DNA from: Alphaproteobacteria bacterium
GTDB lineage: Bacteria; Pseudomonadota; Alphaproteobacteria; Rs-D84
NCBI GenBank assembly: GCA_017520675.1
Contig: JAFXFG010000006.1
Span: 1 to 53,352, forward strand
Direction of reading: 5' to 3'
Length of the DNA stretch: 53,352 nt
Shown here: piece by piece, positions 1-8,450 of the stretch
Layout: each line of letters opens with the position of its first letter
Position numbering within the stretch: the stretch's first letter is position 1
Made by a program: the position numbers and the translations under genes
The notes under the pieces: model-generated
Told to the model about the DNA's origin: nothing
Database searches by the model: none
What the model saw: the letters and a program-made list of their open reading frames with translations, nothing else

Positions 1-1
1 A

Positions 2-223
2 AGCATTTCCCATCCAGAACAAAAATACATCGGGCAAACTGATGATTTAAAAAAACGACTAACGCAACATAATGCAGGATATTCAATACATACGGCAAAA
101 TATAAACCTTGGGAATTGGTAAATTATTTTGCGTTTAGTTCCAAAGACGCTGCATTGGAATTTGAACAATATCTTAAAACAGGTTCCGGACACGCATTCG
201 CAAACCGACACTTTTGGAAATAA
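2..223 (+). CDS. GIY-YIG nuclease family protein, 5' end outside the window
   Basis: Frame 2 reads SISHPEQKYIGQTDDLKKRLTQHNAGYSIHTAKYKPWELVNYFAFSSKDAALEFEQYLKTGSGHAFANRHFWK*. It has the YIG, RLxQHN and A..FE.YLK motifs of small stand-alone GIY-YIG proteins. Missing from the ORF track because no start lies in the window. Confidence 0.9.
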   Translation, partial: SISHPEQKYIGQTDDLKKRLTQHNAGYSIHTAKYKPWELVNYFAFSSKDAALEFEQYLKTGSGHAFANRHFWK

Positions 224-362
224 TTTATCAAGGATACATAGCGCATTCCAGAGAGCAAAAATACAAGGCTTTGGCAAGTTCGAAAGTTAGGTTTTAGAAA
301 ATGTCAAAAAATTGTCATTTTCGAATTTTTGTGGTATAATTTCTCAGGAAAAGGTTGAATTT

Positions 363-908
363 ATGCGACATTTATTAAATTTTCCACAAATAATCAAAAC
401 TCCACGATTGGTGTTGCGGGTGTTGGCGCCAACAAAAGAAAATGCACAACAGATTTTTAATGCGATTGCACAAAATCGGGAGTTTTTAACTAGGTGGCTT
501 GAGCATTTCGTTTCAATACAAAGTCCTGATGATGTGATTGCATATCTGACTAAACGGCAAGAGCAGTTAAAAGATAATAAAGGCGTGTGTTTTCATATCT
601 TTTGTAATGATGATGTAATCGGCAGAATTTGGTTGTTCCGTGACAAAGATAATACTTGCGAGATAGGATACTGGTTAATTGAATCTGTAAATGGACACGG
701 TTATATGACCGAGGCTTTGCTGGCATTAGAAGGCGAATTGTTTAAATTTGGTTTTGACAAAATAATGTTGGAACTGGGTTCTGGAAATACGAGATCAGAA
801 AATTTAGCGATACGCAACGGGTATAAATTGGAAAAACGGTTACCAATGGCGTCGATGGCAAAATGTGTTGGTAAATGTGATTCTTTGATTTATGTAAAAG
901 AAAGATAA
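363..908 (+). CDS. RimJ/RimL-type GNAT N-acetyltransferase
   Basis: Motifs IKTPRLVLR, EIGYWL...GHGYMTEA and N.RSE.LA.RNGY. ATG at 363 preferred over TTG at 312. Confidence 0.85.
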   Translation: MRHLLNFPQIIKTPRLVLRVLAPTKENAQQIFNAIAQNREFLTRWLEHFVSIQSPDDVIAYLTKRQEQLKDNKGVCFHIFCNDDVIGRIWLFRDKDNTCEIGYWLIESVNGHGYMTEALLALEGELFKFGFDKIMLELGSGNTRSENLAIRNGYKLEKRLPMASMAKCVGKCDSLIYVKER

Positions 909-978
909 TATTTTAATAAAATTTCTTTTTCATCTCATCTATTCCTTTTCCTATTTCCACCAAATCGGTTCGCGAATT

Positions 979-1098
979 GCCCACACACCCCAACCACACT
1001 TCGCCTCTAGGACGCTTCGTGTGGCAGGCCACACGGACGAAGCAGTTATCGCGAAGTAGTGTCCACCGTAGCCTTGGCGTAGGCGGACAGGAATAAAA
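979..1098 (-). repeat. About 120-bp palindromic (REP/BIME-like) repeat, copy 1
   Basis: Near-identical to 2247-2371 (inverted) and 3419-3543 (direct). Contains GTCCACCGTAGCCTTGGCGTAGGCGGAC and the GTGTGGC-AG-GCCACAC hairpin. Confidence 0.9.
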
Positions 1099-1139
1099 CA
1101 ATGCCCACAAGGGGCATTTTTTGTTCGGAATACAAGTTT

Positions 1140-1889
1140 CTATTCGTGGGTTGATTGGTTCTGTTTTTGCAAAATAATTTCATTAACAATTTGTTTAATG
1201 CGTGATGGGGCCATAAATAAATTTGGCGCATAATCCAGCACAGTATAAAAAAGTTTTTGGTCTTGGTGTATCTTGTTCCACCAACCAAGCCCTTTATTAC
1301 ATTGTGTTATAAAATACTTAATGTCTTTGGGGTGAAATCTGGATGTGACACCAATCAACAAATCATACGCATTTGTATGATTGTTAACTGGGATATCTCG
1401 CAATACAGGGTTTAACATTTTTATTTCGTTAACCATGTTTTCCATATTCATTAATGCAACATTCTGATTTTTGTTGCTTGTAAAATGCGCTATTATTTTT
1501 CTTTTTTCTTCGTCATTCAATTCGCCCGTTACACTGTTCAAAAAGTCTAAATATTGCTGTTTCTCTTTGGCTGTTGCATCTGGGGCGCCTTGGAATATAT
1601 AATCGACATACAGTTCTGGATTTTCAATACGCAGTGGTTCAAAAAGATGCAGGTAATACATATTATTCATTACTTTTTTTTCATAGTCTTCCTCGGTAAT
1701 ACCATCAGGAAATTTATATTGGTGTGAAATCGGACATGCAGTAATAAAGCCATCATCGGCCAGTCGACGTTCAAAATTTACCGCAGACGACCAATGCCCA
1801 TTTTTAAACACAGCTTCCTTGTCAAGGATATTGCTTATCACCTTTTGTATTTTTTTTGCATTTGAAAAATTTGAATTAGTTATTTGCAT
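1140..1889 (-). CDS. Hypothetical protein (249 aa)
   Basis: Long ORF with an AGGGGA RBS-like site. No recognisable family. Confidence 0.75.
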   Translation of the reverse strand: MQITNSNFSNAKKIQKVISNILDKEAVFKNGHWSSAVNFERRLADDGFITACPISHQYKFPDGITEEDYEKKVMNNMYYLHLFEPLRIENPELYVDYIFQGAPDATAKEKQQYLDFLNSVTGELNDEEKRKIIAHFTSNKNQNVALMNMENMVNEIKMLNPVLRDIPVNNHTNAYDLLIGVTSRFHPKDIKYFITQCNKGLGWWNKIHQDQKLFYTVLDYAPNLFMAPSRIKQIVNEIILQKQNQSTHE

Positions 1890-1972
1890 ACGTTCCCCTG
1901 ATTCATGCTGTTTATTGTATACTATCGTCTTGTGTTTTGCAAATTTATAAACAATTATTAATATTCTTTCCG

Positions 1973-2097
1973 AATATAAACCTTGGGAATTGGTAAATTA
2001 TTTTGCGTTTAGTTCCAAAGATGTCGCGTTGGAATTTGAACAATATCTTAAAACAGGTTCCGGATATGCGTTCGCAAAAAAACACTTTTGGAAATAA
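1973..2097 (+). pseudogene. 5'-truncated GIY-YIG remnant
   Basis: 1973-2158 duplicates 99-284 (about 14 mismatches in 186 nt by eye). Encodes only YKPWELVNYF...HFWK*, with no YIG motif and no ATG start. Confidence 0.85.
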
Positions 2098-2246
2098 TTT
2101 ATCAAGGATACATAGCGCATTCCAGAGAGCAGAAACATAAGACTTTGGCAAGTTCGAAGGTCGAATTTCGATTTTTTATCTCTTCGAATACACTTTCGAA
2201 CTAACAACAATCTTATAAAACTAATGAAAATCTGCTCTAACAGGTC

Positions 2247-2371
2247 TTTTTATTCCTGTCCGCCTACGCCAAGGCTACGGTGGACACTACTTCGCCTATG
2301 CTTCTCGCCTTGTGTGGCCTGCCACACGAAGCCTCGTAGAGGCGAAGTGTGGTTGGGGTGTGCGGGCGAAA
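2247..2371 (+). repeat. About 120-bp palindromic repeat, copy 2
   Basis: TTTTTATTCCTGTCCGCCTACGCCAAGGCTACGGTGGACACTACTTCGC...GTGTGGCCTGCCACACGAAGCCTCGTAGAGGCGAAGTGTGGTTGGGGTGTGCGGGCGAAA. Confidence 0.9.
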
Positions 2372-2432
2372 AGAAGTTGTTTTCTCAAATATATCATGAT
2401 AAAATTACGCATGGTAAAGAAAGGATATTCTT

Positions 2433-3380
2433 ATGGATAACAATTTGCGTAAACGTGCCAGCCAAAGTTTTGAAAAATATTTAAGTAATTTTTTGACCAA
2501 AGGGGAGACCGTAGGTTTGCCTGACTCGCGATTGACAAAAGAAGAATGGGCACAGTTGAATAAATCTTTAATTGAAATTGGTGTTCAGCTGGTCCCTTAT
2601 ATGCAAAATGGATCTATGTACTATTGGTTCACAAAAGCCAGCAGACCTATGGATAAAATAAGTGTTTTTGCAAATGGGCGAGAAAAACTGGAAAACAAAT
2701 TAATTGAAATTATCCAACAAAACCATCCAAATTTATCAACGGTAACGATATTGAATATCCTTCGGTCTGAAAGCCCGACTGATGAGGATATGATATACAG
2801 GATGTTGCGTTACAAGCAAGATGGAGAATATACAGATGTCTCGCAAAAAGAATTTGAAGAGGCCTTTGATTATGCTTTAGCATCGTGTTCTAAACAATGG
2901 CCACAAGGTAGACATATAAACATGCATGAAATGCAAAATTGGACTTGGTGCCGATCTTGTGGCGGTAATACAGAAACCCCTGTTATTGATTCTGGTAATC
3001 CGAATGGTTTTCATATCAGTCTGAATGTTCGTGTCACAAAAGATTTAATTAAAGTTTTAGATGACTTTTTGATTAAAGATGGGGGAAGATATATTAGGTC
3101 TTACAAATTTCCCAAAACGAATTTTTACGATGAAATATTATCGCGACATGACCCTGTAACTATTTATACAAATGCTAGAAATCCAAACTTAGAAAAACAA
3201 ATCGCTACCGCAATTCAACCATTTGTGCGTTCAAACGATGGATTGGTTGGAGATATGTTAGGCAAAGGAATTTCCATCAGTCCAGAAACATCGAATGCGA
3301 ATGGTGGAAACTCTGTCGGAACAGCTGTTTCAAAAGATATCGCAAGTATTATTAAGGAATATGGTGGTAATGCATTTTAA
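2433..3380 (+). CDS. Hypothetical protein (315 aa); C-terminal half has weak OspF/HopA1-like lyase-fold motifs
   Basis: Long ORF with an AAGGA RBS. Motifs GFHISLNV, YKF and RHDPVTIY. The function call is speculative. Confidence 0.7.
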   Translation: MDNNLRKRASQSFEKYLSNFLTKGETVGLPDSRLTKEEWAQLNKSLIEIGVQLVPYMQNGSMYYWFTKASRPMDKISVFANGREKLENKLIEIIQQNHPNLSTVTILNILRSESPTDEDMIYRMLRYKQDGEYTDVSQKEFEEAFDYALASCSKQWPQGRHINMHEMQNWTWCRSCGGNTETPVIDSGNPNGFHISLNVRVTKDLIKVLDDFLIKDGGRYIRSYKFPKTNFYDEILSRHDPVTIYTNARNPNLEKQIATAIQPFVRSNDGLVGDMLGKGISISPETSNANGGNSVGTAVSKDIASIIKEYGGNAF

Positions 3381-3418
3381 ATGCTTCATTTGAAATACAT
3401 GTGCCATCTCAACTCGCG

Positions 3419-3543
3419 TTTCGCCCGCACACCCCAACCACACTTCGCCTCTAGTACGCTTCGTGTGGCGGGCCACACAAGGCGAGTAGCAAAGGCGAAG
3501 TAGTGTCCACCGTAGCCTTGGCGTAGGCGGACAGGAATAAAAA
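3419..3543 (-). repeat. About 120-bp palindromic repeat, copy 3
   Basis: Reverse complement of copy 2 with few mismatches. Copies 2 and 3 bracket ORF 2433-3380. Confidence 0.9.
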
Positions 3544-3647
3544 TCAAATGTTTTATGTATATCTTATAAAAGTATTTTCTGTTTAACAGTTGGCTTTCGT
3601 TGGGGGACAATAAAAGAAACCGCCAAATGCCGGTTAATACATGCGCG

Positions 3648-3812
3648 TTAAAAGTCAGTGCGTGATTTATCGTATGCTTGTTTTGCCTCAACCGACTCGT
3701 TATTAAGATCGGGATGATATTTTTTTGCTAATCGCTTATACGCCTTATAAACTTGCTCTGGCGTCGCGCTCTCAGATACATTTAATATTTTTGCTGTCTC
3801 GCTTAAAGTCAT
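3648..3812 (-). CDS. Minimal or truncated DnaJ J-domain protein (54 aa), possibly a pseudogene
   Basis: Own translation: MTLSETAKILNVSESATPEQVYKAYKRLAKKYHPDLNNESVEAKQAYDKSRTDF*. Has the J-domain IL.V...A...E.KAYKRLAKKYHPD pattern. Below the ORF-track length cutoff. Confidence 0.75.
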   Translation of the reverse strand: MTLSETAKILNVSESATPEQVYKAYKRLAKKYHPDLNNESVEAKQAYDKSRTDF

Positions 3813-4293: not shown

Positions 4294-4368
4294 GCTCCCA
4301 TCGTCTAGCGGTTAGGACATCAGATTCTCATTCTGGTAACACGGGTTCGATTCCCGTTGGGAGTGCCA
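4294..4368 (+). tRNA. tRNA-Glu (anticodon CTC)
   Basis: GCTCCCA...TGGGAGT acceptor stem with encoded CCA. Anticodon arm TCAGA-TTCTCAT-TCTGG; GGTTCGATTCC T arm. Confidence 0.95.
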
Positions 4369-4465: not shown

Positions 4466-4552
4466 TACTATGGAAAAAGAAGAAATCCATACTATGGAAG
4501 AAGAAATCCATACTATGGAAGAAGAAATCCATACTCTGGAAAAAGAAAAAAT
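4466..4552 (+). repeat. 21-bp tandem repeat (TACTATGGAAGAAGAAATCCA), about 4 copies
   Basis: Directly visible and in frame with the CDS. Confidence 0.9.
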
Positions 4553-5013: not shown

Positions 5014-6084
5014 TTATCCCAGTATTGCGGTTATTTGGTCTTGCATTTGAAAAGTTCCCAGAACAACCCATGCAATAATTGCAGATACAACCAGAATACC
5101 AATACTGTTTAATAAATTTGAAACGCGCTCCATTTTTCTGACTGATTCTTCCAGATAGTCATTTGCGATTTTGCTCAGGTTTTCATCAAATCCGTTCATA
5201 TCGGCATAAATAATCAAGTCGCCAATTATTTCATCGTCTGGGAATTTGCGCCCTGTATTTGTCAGTGCAACCCCCAGGTTATCGCCATTTGCAACATAGT
5301 GCAGTGCATCATCCAAGATACTCCGCAAATATCTATTTGCATTATCCGCCAACAGTCGCATTGCATCGGGAATTGTTCCGCCTGCTTTTACTATCGCGGC
5401 CAAAGACATTAACCAACTAACAGAAACTTGTATTTTATAAACATTCCAAGGTGGTAATTTATCAAAAAACACGCGCAGTTTTCCGGACCAATTTGCCAGA
5501 CTTAACCAGATTACCGAAATCAGGGCTGCAAACGCAACCATAAACACATACCAATAGTTTATAGATATTTCCGACACCACAACCAAAGAGCGTGCCAATC
5601 CGCGCCACACGACATTATTTCCTGCGACCTCTGCCAACGGAGGCACCAGGTATATTCCAACCATAATTATAATACCAAAAGTCAGCGCCAGCAAAAACAA
5701 AGGATACGCGATTGCACTAACCATTGCGCGTCTGATGCGTCCGGTTCCTTCTACCACGCGTCCTACATTTTCCAACGCGACTGCCAAATCAGACAAATTC
5801 CCTGATGACACCAACAGTGTTTCTTCTGGGGGCACCCAACCGCGTGTTGCCTCGGAAAAAGTCATACCGCGTTCCAGACTGTATTGCCATTGTCGCATAA
5901 CGATTGCAAAGGGTTCATGTGGTTTTGTTCCGTTCTTAGACTCAACAACTTCCAGACGTTCAAGTGCATTAATCAATGTAAAGTCGTTTCGCAGCAGTGA
6001 TGCCAACTTTCGGCACAGCGCCATACGCTTTTCTGTACTGGTTCGGAAAACCCATTTTGCATAAAGCAGTTCTAGTCTATTCAT
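5014..6084 (-). CDS. pilR: Type IVb pilus inner-membrane platform protein (PilR/GspF family)
   Basis: Two T2SSF-like repeats with TM segments (AIAYPLFLL, LERGMTFSEA). Follows the ATPase, as in R64-type pil operons. Confidence 0.8.
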   Translation of the reverse strand: MNRLELLYAKWVFRTSTEKRMALCRKLASLLRNDFTLINALERLEVVESKNGTKPHEPFAIVMRQWQYSLERGMTFSEATRGWVPPEETLLVSSGNLSDLAVALENVGRVVEGTGRIRRAMVSAIAYPLFLLALTFGIIIMVGIYLVPPLAEVAGNNVVWRGLARSLVVVSEISINYWYVFMVAFAALISVIWLSLANWSGKLRVFFDKLPPWNVYKIQVSVSWLMSLAAIVKAGGTIPDAMRLLADNANRYLRSILDDALHYVANGDNLGVALTNTGRKFPDDEIIGDLIIYADMNGFDENLSKIANDYLEESVRKMERVSNLLNSIGILVVSAIIAWVVLGTFQMQDQITAILG

Positions 6085-6086
6085 TT

Positions 6087-7721
6087 TTAATATGCCCCAG
6101 GTTCATTTACATATCCGACCCATCTTTCTAATTCATCGACACTGATTATTCCTTGCAACATCAACGAAGAAGCAGATTCTTTCAGTGTTCGTCCGTTCAT
6201 ATTTTCCAGCCAATAGCGAATTGCGCCATCTGTGTTACCTGACAAAGCGAGTCTTAAAAATTCACTGTTTGTAATAATGATTTCACCGGCTTTTATGCGT
6301 CCAAGTGTTCCGCTTCCATTACAGTGTGGGCAGCCTGCACCGCGCAGATACGCCTGACGCACCCCCAGTTCGCCATACATTTCCATTGTTCGTTTATATG
6401 CGCCGCGTTCGGGGTGTTTTTCCAGTGGTTCGCGACAATGTGGACAAACCTTTTTAAATAATCTCATAGAAACCAAGCCACGCATCAGTGTTTCTTCTTT
6501 TAGTTTAAAAGGCTCAATTCCCAAATCCAACAGACGCGTCAGCGCCGCCATTGCAGAGTTTGCGTGCAGTGTTGTCCAGACATTATGCCCAGACAATGCA
6601 CCACGCACAGTCAACTGTGCAGCGGCCAAGGTGCGAATTTCACCAACCATCAATGTGTCTGGGTCGCTACGCAATGCAGCGGCCAGGGCTTCGACATATT
6701 TTTCTTCGCGCTGTTCTTCATTTGTCGTATTAACGACAGGCATCTGATGTGCCCCAAAGATTTTCTGTTCAACGGGATTTTCAACGGTTATTAAATTGAT
6801 TTCGTAATTGCGTTCTTTCAGCATCAAAGACATATTTCGAACCAGTGTCGTTGATTTACCTGAACTTGTTGGACCTGCGACAATCACTAGTCCTGTTGGA
6901 AACGACCGCATACGTGCCAACAATCTTTGTTCATATGGTCCGAATTCTTGTTCGGTCTTAATTCCCTGCGATGGGTTATCGTATAACAGGCGCATAACTA
7001 CATATCGGCTGCCAAAAGCGATTGGGTTAAACTGCATACGAACACCCAGCACCCCAGACGGCAGGTATAAATCCTTGGTTCCACGCAGTGGTGTGCGCCC
7101 ATCCTTTTGCGCAGATTGATATTCATTTTGTGCATAGTTTGCATTTGACATATCTGACGATGCGAACGCAGCGCGCACAAAAGATTCGCCCCATTGTGAA
7201 TTATATTCCAGCACAGGTTGCATACTGCCATCTATACGAAAATAGATTGTTGTTTGGTCTGCTACTTCGATATGAACATCTGAAACTTTTTGTGATGCGG
7301 CTTTGGCGATAATATCGACAAAGTCCTTTTGCATTTGATTGTCGAAATCCATGCGTGAGCGTGCCCCACCGCCTGCGCGCATTTCTTGTGTTTTGTATAT
7401 ATTTGAAATTAATCCCAAATCAGAATAATACGGCGCATTAACCACGCGTCCGCGTCTGCGCAGTAAATCCAAGAAAGACAACACGCGCCCATCATAGCGA
7501 TGGGTACGTGATATAATAATTTCGCCACCGGTAAAGTATGCCAATAATCCTTGGGTATCGCGTGGCAGTTCAAGCGCAGCGCCAGTTGCTGTCAACAACC
7601 GATTCCCATTAGAAAACAGATAGTCTATAATGTCCTTAGATTCAGAATTTTCCAGTCCCAGTGGGATGGACGGTTTATCTGATGTGTTTTCTATATCAAG
7701 ATTATCGTTCTTTTTTGTCAT
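6087..7721 (-). CDS. pilQ: Type IVb pilus assembly ATPase (PilQ/GspE family)
   Basis: SDVHI, Walker A GPTSSGKSTT, Asp box TVENPVE, Walker B LRSDPDTLMVGEIR, His box GH...TTLHAN and two CPHC motifs. Confidence 0.85.
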   Translation of the reverse strand: MTKKNDNLDIENTSDKPSIPLGLENSESKDIIDYLFSNGNRLLTATGAALELPRDTQGLLAYFTGGEIIISRTHRYDGRVLSFLDLLRRRGRVVNAPYYSDLGLISNIYKTQEMRAGGGARSRMDFDNQMQKDFVDIIAKAASQKVSDVHIEVADQTTIYFRIDGSMQPVLEYNSQWGESFVRAAFASSDMSNANYAQNEYQSAQKDGRTPLRGTKDLYLPSGVLGVRMQFNPIAFGSRYVVMRLLYDNPSQGIKTEQEFGPYEQRLLARMRSFPTGLVIVAGPTSSGKSTTLVRNMSLMLKERNYEINLITVENPVEQKIFGAHQMPVVNTTNEEQREEKYVEALAAALRSDPDTLMVGEIRTLAAAQLTVRGALSGHNVWTTLHANSAMAALTRLLDLGIEPFKLKEETLMRGLVSMRLFKKVCPHCREPLEKHPERGAYKRTMEMYGELGVRQAYLRGAGCPHCNGSGTLGRIKAGEIIITNSEFLRLALSGNTDGAIRYWLENMNGRTLKESASSLMLQGIISVDELERWVGYVNEPGAY

Positions 7722-7730
7722 TATATACTC

Positions 7731-8450
7731 TTAGTTTCCGTTGCTGACATTCAAAGTCTGTGTAATTCCATCTGCATCAGTAAATACAACACCATCATAA
7801 ACAGAAATTGTTTTAACGGTCAAACCATCAAGTTTTTTACCAACACTTATGCGTTTTGTTTGTCCTGTTGTCAGGTCTTCGACAGTGGCCTGCAATTGAT
7901 TTCCAGCCCCAACAACATTAACCAATCTGTATTTCTGTGTAATATCAACACTTGGTGTTTCTGTAACTATTGGCGTGGCGGTTGCGCGTGCTGTTGCCAC
8001 AGGTTTTTCTGCCTCAGCCAGCCAAGATTCTTTTTCGCGTTCTATGCGTGCCGCCTCTGCCTCTAATTTTGCTTTTTGTGTTTCGATTTCTTGCTGTTGT
8101 TGTTCTGCGCGCCCAGACAAAGTATCGATTTCCATATGCAGTTTTATTTTTTCTGCTGCAAGTCTGTCCAGTTCCAAGTCCAGTTGTGCGCGTTCTTTTT
8201 CCAACTGCATCAAGATTTTTTCTTGTTCCAAATCAGTAATTTGTTGAAATAAAGAACCATCTGGTGAATAGTTTGCGATTGCATCTGCTGCAACTTCCTC
8301 GGCAGAAAAATCCTCAACGAAATCAGTGCCATCATCTTCGACATAAACATCGGCTGATTTCACATAGACATCTGCGGCCCAAGATTGATGTAACATTCCC
8401 AACAGGGCGAATAACATAAAACCAAAAGTCAACTTTTTCTTATTTTGCAT
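7731..8450 (-). CDS. PilP-like type IVb pilus biogenesis protein
   Basis: Signal peptide, long coiled coil and a C-terminal beta domain (VVGAGNQLQATV...VKTISVYDGV). Lies between pilO and pilQ. Confidence 0.55.
   Translation of the reverse strand: MQNKKKLTFGFMLFALLGMLHQSWAADVYVKSADVYVEDDGTDFVEDFSAEEVAADAIANYSPDGSLFQQITDLEQEKILMQLEKERAQLDLELDRLAAEKIKLHMEIDTLSGRAEQQQQEIETQKAKLEAEAARIEREKESWLAEAEKPVATARATATPIVTETPSVDITQKYRLVNVVGAGNQLQATVEDLTTGQTKRISVGKKLDGLTVKTISVYDGVVFTDADGITQTLNVSNGN

Follow-up and report, generated by a model that had tools for sequence, protein, structure and literature searches.

What three hairpin-rich repeats are doing beside a small GIY-YIG nuclease gene is the question raised by the start of an alphaproteobacterial contig. 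The stretch analysed, hereafter the window, comprises 53,352 nt (GenBank JAFXFG010000006.1) and is contig C3 of the 1.1-Mb genome G000, an assembly of 46 contigs that is 95% complete and contains 46 tRNA-type genes. The original prediction, made from the letters of the window, held that the repeats delimit cargo genes captured or shuffled by the nuclease. Our analysis leads to a different answer: the repeats (R1, R2, and R3) are probably gene-less or truncated copies of the leader of an approximately 350-bp element, which lies behind the CCA end of transfer RNA (tRNA) or transfer-messenger RNA (tmRNA) genes and is likely selfish DNA that uses its own nuclease to spread. The element lacks a recombinase and consists of (i) the leader and (ii) one gene encoding 81 residues; its defining feature, the fixed start at the tRNA CCA, was absent from the original prediction.

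The three repeats lie where they had been predicted, but with their strands reversed: in the direction of the element, which runs from tRNA end through leader to gene, R1 and R3 are on the forward strand and R2 is on the reverse strand. Both hairpins quoted as examples are present. R2 and R3 share 95% identity over 125 nt, and R1 and R3 share 88% over 130 nt (blastn E-values of 1e-39 to 1e-52); a blastn search over the window revealed no further copy, as had been claimed. The outer 15–25 nt of the repeats are a remnant of the tRNA-Gln 3′ end, and the remainder is leader. R1 (residues 994–1091 of the window, +) is a leader-only copy that extends from the CCA (994–996) of a cassette junction ending in such a remnant (968–996, +) to the ribosome-binding site. 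R2 (2248–2352, −) is an inverted leader-only copy that starts from the CCA (2352–2350) of an inverted remnant (2350–2371). R3 (3438–3578, +) starts from the CCA (3438–3440) of another junction ending in a tRNA-Gln remnant (3414–3440, +) and comprises the leader, up to position 3547, and the start of a third GIY-YIG copy that is broken off after approximately 10 codons (ATG at 3548).

The leader, approximately 100 bp in length, belongs to the 81-residue GIY-YIG gene and starts precisely with the CCA that terminates a tRNA gene or a tRNA 3′-end remnant. The window contains the last 73 codons and the stop of the intact gene (1–223, +). Contig C11 shares 141 identical nt with the start of the window and carries the first 8 codons and a fourth leader copy (R0), and contigs from all 4 DNA runs join leader and ATG to window position 1; the gene is thus intact, as predicted. 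The order across C11 and C3 is tRNA-Gln(TTG), a terminator, a spacer of approximately 170 bp ending in a copy of the tRNA 3′ end, R0 (278 bp behind tRNA-Gln), and the ATG of the gene that ends at 223. Because R0 and R3 both run into the ATG of the gene, we designate the repeat as its leader. Three variant leader copies are located behind tRNA-Gln(CTG) on contig C33, giving a total of 7 copies in G000, every one behind a CCA, in two tRNA-Gln arrays. The second array (G000:C33:21500-25855, locus L032) is also a cassette array, in which the three copies are leader-only, one junction is empty, and a cassette is paralogous to the GNAT cassette of the window. The C11 spacer (L031:283-440), which is structured and extends from the terminator to the duplicated tRNA end, recurs behind different tRNAs with or without a leader and may be another small element.

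The tRNA-end location is widespread. In 64 of the best 80 of at least 591 confirmed GTDB loci of nuclease homologs, the 400 nt upstream contain a tRNA or tmRNA gene in the same orientation, compared with a chance expectation of approximately 1% (46 tRNA-type genes per 1.1 Mb). These genes are of 26 kinds, and the loci belong to Pseudomonadota, Verrucomicrobia, Deltaproteobacteria, Planctomycetota, Patescibacteria, Dependentiae, and others. A GNA-loop hairpin was found upstream of the gene in 65 of 82 loci and in 1 of 139 control windows. At the loci of the host's family, the leader spans the distance from the CCA of the tRNA or remnant to the ATG; near-identical first hairpins stand behind tRNAs that share little beyond the CCA end, and similarity between copies stops at the stop codon of the gene. 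Remnants of tRNA ends are common in the family, whether the element is present or not. A target-site duplication was rejected as a general feature, since a duplicated tRNA end follows the gene in 3 of the 64 distant loci against a background of 2.6%. In 201 genomes of the family, the leader pattern was matched 187 times, with a maximum of 19 per genome; it occurs in 51 of the 56 genomes whose homolog is at least 58% identical and in 24 of the 144 that lack such a homolog, kin among these genomes not being independent. The predicted tie between the repeats and the GIY-YIG gene is therefore borne out.

The nuclease comprises one domain (PF01541, E = 1.4e-13, above the cut-off; predicted model with a pLDDT of 97), and no extra domain, either RING or DNA-binding, was found in its 81 residues. 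Its catalytic positions are conserved: Tyr5, Gly19, His31, and Glu63 are invariant in 44 homologs, and Tyr17 and Arg27 nearly so. The best matches in both sequence and fold are Slx1 and HIGLE, with which it shares the conserved Tyr, Gly, Arg, His, and Glu positions; in the fold comparison, the E-value was 1e-4 for Slx1 versus 0.2 for I-TevI. We take cd10449 to be the label of this Slx1-like GIY-YIG subfamily. As judged from sequence comparison, the gene is under purifying selection (median ratio of nonsynonymous to synonymous substitution of 0.12; 440 pairs, 33 genes). Homologs are present in 84 of the 201 family genomes, and a representative library contained 1211 clusters at 50% identity with E-values up to 1e-10; among the matches listed, the closest named records are mostly from Candidatus Enterousia (94–96% identical), to which the host probably belongs. 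A tree of 54 proteins, labelled by the nearest tRNA within 450 nt and excluding row L211 (internal stop), carries 13 tRNA labels and is poorly resolved, with 14 of 49 branches supported. It includes a supported sister pair at different tRNAs (Lys and Ala, 100/96), and several near-identical proteins are also located at different tRNAs. Viral contigs yielded 0 relatives with the single protein as query and 2 loci with the alignment as query, neither behind a called tRNA; therefore, a phage origin is not indicated.

Comparison with relatives revealed filled and empty alleles of the same sites. R1 is present in the contigs of runs X1 and X2 and is skipped in those of runs X13 and X14, which come from two other studies and have flanks of approximately 99% identity; residues 997–1091 are missing from the empty alleles. 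The junction at 968–996 is also leader-free in genome G209 and 8 further genomes. G209 has the GNAT gene, the cassette of a 249-residue protein, and the truncated GIY-YIG gene in the same order as the window, without R1, and G255 has the cassette of a 315-residue protein between the same flanks with neither R2 nor R3, a terminator replacing the leader at the R3 junction. Because these genomes and runs have the same junctions without the repeats, R1, R2, and R3 are best described as inserts in those junctions. The right junctions of R1 and R2 fall within a GAATAAAA-like match, and filled and empty R1 alleles also differ in the approximately 15 nt that precede the CCA, a pattern expected from co-conversion.

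The cassettes show the same independence. The 249-residue protein is encoded (1140–1889, −), together with a terminator (1100–1118), in a cassette (1092–1973) that has sharp ends in 11 examined loci and 93–97% identity among carriers. Its left flank is visible in 10 other genomes, where it is a bare tRNA-end remnant in 9 and a leader in 1. A sample of 60 tRNA-Gln(TTG) loci was taken from 191 genomes with a match, the first 40 being chosen for contig room and the last 20 partly for the gene; a leader follows the CCA in 14 of them (5 of the first 40), and most others have a terminator. The 36 intervals between tRNA-Gln and tRNA-Glu, the window included, contain 98 open reading frames (ORFs) in 65 families, 48 of which are singletons. 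The cargo does turn over among relatives, as had been expected, yet 24 of the 36 intervals have no leader by the pattern and still measure 94 to 6673 bp with changing genes. Since the cassettes occur in relatives without the repeats, the repeats are likely selfish hitch-hikers rather than a machine that moves cargo.

The leader may adopt two alternative structures. Covariation was counted in leaders anchored by the pattern, which 35 of 64 leaders fit (kin not independent). The three bases behind the CCA, which occur in 9 variants, are complemented in the first hairpin in all 35 anchored leaders (shuffle mean 6.1, maximum 16) and in the second arm in 21 of 26 leaders. Therefore, two exclusive folds are conserved, that is to say, the first hairpin and a long rod. 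The internal loops of the first hairpin read G(N)A/G(N)A on the bottom strand, and the hairpin is built onto the CCA of the tRNA itself; the inner stem pairs fully in R2 but has 1 mismatch in R1 and 2 mismatches in R3. The last hairpin has the same G(N)A loops on the top strand. In 22 of the 35 leaders, the bottom strand of the first hairpin carries C(TT)G, C(GCA)G, or C(GAA)G as its apical loop, whose letters the pattern left free; DNA loops of the form C(GNA)G are stable (PMC3201870). The same loop motif thus faces opposite ways on the two strands, which suggests that the hairpin motif is a DNA site.

A mechanism can be proposed as follows: (i) the gene would be read from the tRNA promoter where the two are adjacent; (ii) the protein would bind the leader hairpins in single-stranded DNA and nick beside them, much as SsnA and Slx1 act on their own substrates; (iii) the released strand, whose end is complementary to the tRNA tail, would anneal to a further tRNA gene or tRNA-end remnant that terminates in CCA; and (iv) the element would be synthesized into the target, starting at the CCA and stopping where a short match lets the new strand rejoin the target. 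In the window, the targets would be the tRNA-end remnants that already separated the cassettes of the tRNA-Gln array. The nicking step is proposed by analogy because SsnA cleaves single-stranded DNA at a distance of a few bases from its hairpin (PMC11893778) and Slx1 cleaves near branch points (PMC6902002). Copying primed at the tRNA tail would fit the fixed 5′ end at CCA, the ragged 3′ ends, the short matches at the right junctions, the altered bases before the CCA, and the absence of both a recombinase and a duplication. Among copies picked by their first hairpin, 17 consist of the first hairpin only, 2 end in mid-leader, 12 contain the whole leader, 4 include part of the gene, and 21 are full. 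An internal CCA behind the first hairpin is reused, resulting in tandem 35-mers. At locus L252 (G157:C32:170-590), three tRNA genes in a row are followed by first-hairpin-only units, and some of these units are duplicated in tandem at the internal CCA.

Several observations weigh against this reading of the element. Gain of a leader, rather than its precise loss, is favored by parsimony only, and recombination by the host between tRNA tails could duplicate leaders with no help from the nuclease. No tRNA was called upstream at 16 of the 80 GTDB loci, and leaders occur in 17 of 117 genomes without a detected homolog, in up to 13 copies, the assemblies being incomplete. Five of the 26 profile matches in the 60 tRNA-Gln loci begin inside the leader and not at the CCA. 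Leaders also stand at cassette junctions in G179, G053, G240, and G163. As for the hairpins, the letters of the GNA internal loops were partly imposed by the search patterns, and G-T wobbles favor neither strand (4 vs 4; 5 vs 3). Nearest-neighbor folding with ViennaRNA preferred the long rod to the first hairpin (z-scores of −1.4 to −3.9), so the first hairpin rests on covariation, not on predicted energy. The RNA runs X15, X17, and X18 gave small shares and contigs of up to 53 kb with the sequence of relatives, and were uninformative on transcription. Finally, ten copies of a last-hairpin variant lie away from tRNAs in G000, and 8 or more of these adjoin SRM-like or related repeats (SRM repeats are described below). 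These copies (C11:19772, C13:5849, C18:1623, C20:14768, C22:14985, C22:36293, C32:15319, C36:164, C36:357, and C42:371) are near-identical, have GAA/GAA loops, and are fused at the 3′ end to the GTCA that starts SRM-like repeats; they are possibly a leader piece now carried by the repeats of the Ssn nucleases.

Some of these observations would also be expected if the nuclease served the host, either by cleaving hairpin-bearing substrates (incoming single-stranded DNA or branched intermediates) or by guarding tRNA attachment sites, with leaders spread passively through recombination between tRNA tails and integration of islands. Purifying selection fits such a role equally well, leaders persist in genomes without a detected gene, and SsnA lowers the integration of repeat-bearing DNA (PMC11893778). 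An island with a tyrosine integrase at tRNA-Gln(TTG) in G152, moreover, displaced the tRNA tail, leader, and gene together by 8.4 kb. By contrast, active spread better explains the patchy presence of the gene in the family, the near-identical proteins at different tRNAs, and the near-identical first hairpins behind tRNAs alike in little but CCA; islands also still integrate at filled sites. We consider a host function unlikely, although it is the best placed of the alternatives.

It is improbable that the leader instead functions as RNA, in the form of a pre-tRNA trailer that switches between two states to control tRNA maturation or translation of the nuclease, with the DNA copies being inert duplicates. 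The leader is placed for co-transcription with the tRNA, pairs with its CCA, and ends at the ribosome-binding site, and the two exclusive covarying folds, with an RNA z-score of −3.9 for R3, would suit a switch. However, the G(N)A internal loops and the C(GNA)G and C(TT)G apical loops of the first hairpin lie only on the strand that is not transcribed, gene-less and inverted copies are kept and multiplied, and no Rfam family matched the repeats or 20 distant leaders. Least credible, and largely refuted, is the original proposal that the hairpins are recombination or nicking sites for capture and shuffling of cargo: leaders do flank three cargo genes in the window and three on C33, they stand at the four further cassette junctions named above, and cassette order differs among strains of the host species, and existing copies could promote secondary rearrangement, but the same cassettes and junctions exist without leaders, the 24 leader-free intervals vary as much, a second leader lies within 2.5 kb in only 13 of 64 loci of distant phyla, and recombinase islands use the same tRNA.

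Such islands, and not the leader element, probably built the tRNA-Gln array. At tRNA-Gln(TTG), the island of locus L062 (G114) contains a large serine recombinase, DUF2924, and a type III restriction-modification pair, and that of L076 (G152) contains the tyrosine integrase and a resolvase; the cargo scan covered 134 of 170 cargo representatives. The recombinases of G000 are located on contigs other than that of the window. No array-building enzyme was identified there, the comparison of a site with TTCGAA arms with the large serine recombinase on C34 giving a weak match approximately 740 bp outside the gene. This site of 51 bp (2151–2201) has inverted TTCGAA arms and is a separate junction motif outside the leader that is also present in leader-less relatives. 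In G000, sites of this type (approximately 51 bp) are limited to tRNA-trailing regions, namely the window, the tRNA-Gln array of C33 (C33:22571, 23619, and 25673), and the region behind tRNA-Met (C8:9631), and are candidate recombination sites of the cassettes.

Among the closest known systems is that of the Ssn nucleases (cd10448), which are paired with NTS/SRM hairpin repeats (Chenal et al. 2025, PMC11893778). The two systems share a small single-domain GIY-YIG gene with a cognate hairpin repeat, gene-less copies, and a proposed link to mobile DNA. They differ in that the element described here is Slx1-like, encodes 81 residues, and has a one-sided leader, internal GNA loops, and a fixed tRNA target; the word “tRNA” is absent from the main text of PMC11893778 as available. 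The SRM pattern matched none of R1–R3, nothing in window residues 1–4300, and 1 of 80 homologous loci. SsnA-level homology is defined in the same paper as E < 1e-10 over more than 75% of the length within clade cd10448, whereas our comparison gave 36% identity over 66 of 104 residues (E = 1e-4; profile E = 6e-7) with the SRM-flanked Ssn-type protein of G000 as a stand-in for SsnA. The gene of this 104-residue GIY-YIG protein (G000:C29:49500-50300, L249) has SRM/NTS-like repeats on both sides, which account for 4 of the 25 SRM matches in the genome. Two different nuclease/hairpin systems thus coexist in this 1.1-Mb genome.

The analogy with REP/RAYT-type systems drawn in the original prediction holds. 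Like the REP/REPIN units multiplied by RAYT transposases (Bertels and Rainey 2011, PMC3116915), the leader copies are non-autonomous palindromic units, with two inverted hairpins, multiplied beside an enzyme that acts, here putatively, on single strands. The union of two inverted palindromes in one long hairpin is also found here, in the pairing of the second arm (21 of 26) and in the rod as the predicted fold. The enzyme, however, is a GIY-YIG nuclease instead of an HUH/Y1 transposase, and the copies, rather than being scattered in abundance through extragenic DNA, are few and begin at CCA ends. No match to PF01797 (Y1 transposase) was found in the 95% complete genome G000. Thus, the element resembles both the Ssn/SRM and REPIN/RAYT systems in its working but is a member of neither.

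Free-standing GIY-YIG homing endonucleases of the I-TevI type are selfish nuclease genes that spread by gene conversion with co-conversion of the flanks; their modular proteins carry DNA-binding domains and cut the empty allele in double-stranded form. Filled and empty alleles at the same site are common to them and to the element (R1, R2, R3, and the tRNA-Gln(TTG) sample), which is likely also copied by gene conversion but differs in lacking DNA-binding domains, in a fold nearer Slx1, in its structured leader, and in its non-allelic tRNA targets. The tRNA 3′ end is also the target of tRNA-integrating genomic islands and of integron-like cassette arrays, which the surrounding array resembles in its tRNA-end remnants and single-gene cassettes. 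By contrast, the element has no integrase or recombinase of its own and generally no duplicated tRNA end at its far border, and it occupies remnants left by others. Compared with Slx1 and HIGLE (PMC6902002 and PMC1564403), its protein has no RING domain or partner and is bacterial, probably mobile, and tied to a leader. The latter source, a 2006 survey, mentions stand-alone bacterial Slx1-like proteins, with no link to tRNA genes in the part available. No description of a tRNA-end GIY-YIG element was found in the open literature, including the available parts of PMC11893778, PMC1564403, PMC11915505, and bioRxiv 10.64898/2026.09.22.753630.

The other features of the region are as follows. The GNAT acetyltransferase (Acetyltransf_3; 363–908, +) has its own sigma-70-like promoter (312–340) and a 77% identical copy in the C33 array; promoter predictions in the region are near the shuffle level (26 vs 17.1 ± 4.4). 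The second GIY-YIG gene (1973–2097, +) retains its 3′ half, without the leader and 5′ half; in G240, a leader and a gene with its 5′ end lie at the same place. The 315-residue hypothetical protein (2433–3380, +) gave only a weak HopA1-like lead (Atlas score 0.92, with the family on 11–35% of cluster members), and the 249-residue protein had no Pfam, NCBIfam, or Atlas assignment. NCBIfam gave no match for the nuclease or the hypothetical proteins, and defense libraries gave weak partial PADLOC matches only. The variable array ends with a 54-residue DnaJ-domain ORF (3648–3812, −), possibly a fragment, and tRNA-Glu(CTC) (4294–4368, +) is its conserved right-hand marker. Farther on, three 21-bp tandem repeats (4477–4548) lie at the start of a gene for a 171-residue membrane protein, and ORFs at 5014–8450 (−) resemble, in the ORF list, a type IV pilus/type II secretion platform, ATPase, and accessory proteins.

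What the window locus newly provides is the set of empty alleles that separate the element from the cassette array; in near-identical strains, the filled and empty alleles constitute an exact donor, target, and product for a direct test. We raise, tentatively, the idea of a new class of minimal autonomous mobile DNA of approximately 350 bp, devoid of recombinase, transposase, and reverse transcriptase. Its Slx1-like nuclease might read GNA-loop hairpins on both leader strands and drive copying that is primed at the target, behind the CCA of nearly any tRNA or tmRNA gene, in many phyla, and the gene-less hairpins might be its non-autonomous offspring. If true, Ssn would be joined by another nuclease/hairpin family that recognizes a different motif and might serve as a compact tool for single-stranded DNA. 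The very many unannotated GIY-YIG genes of 80 residues, and the hairpins behind tRNA genes, would gain a function, and bacteria would harbor an integrase-free way to colonize tRNA ends.

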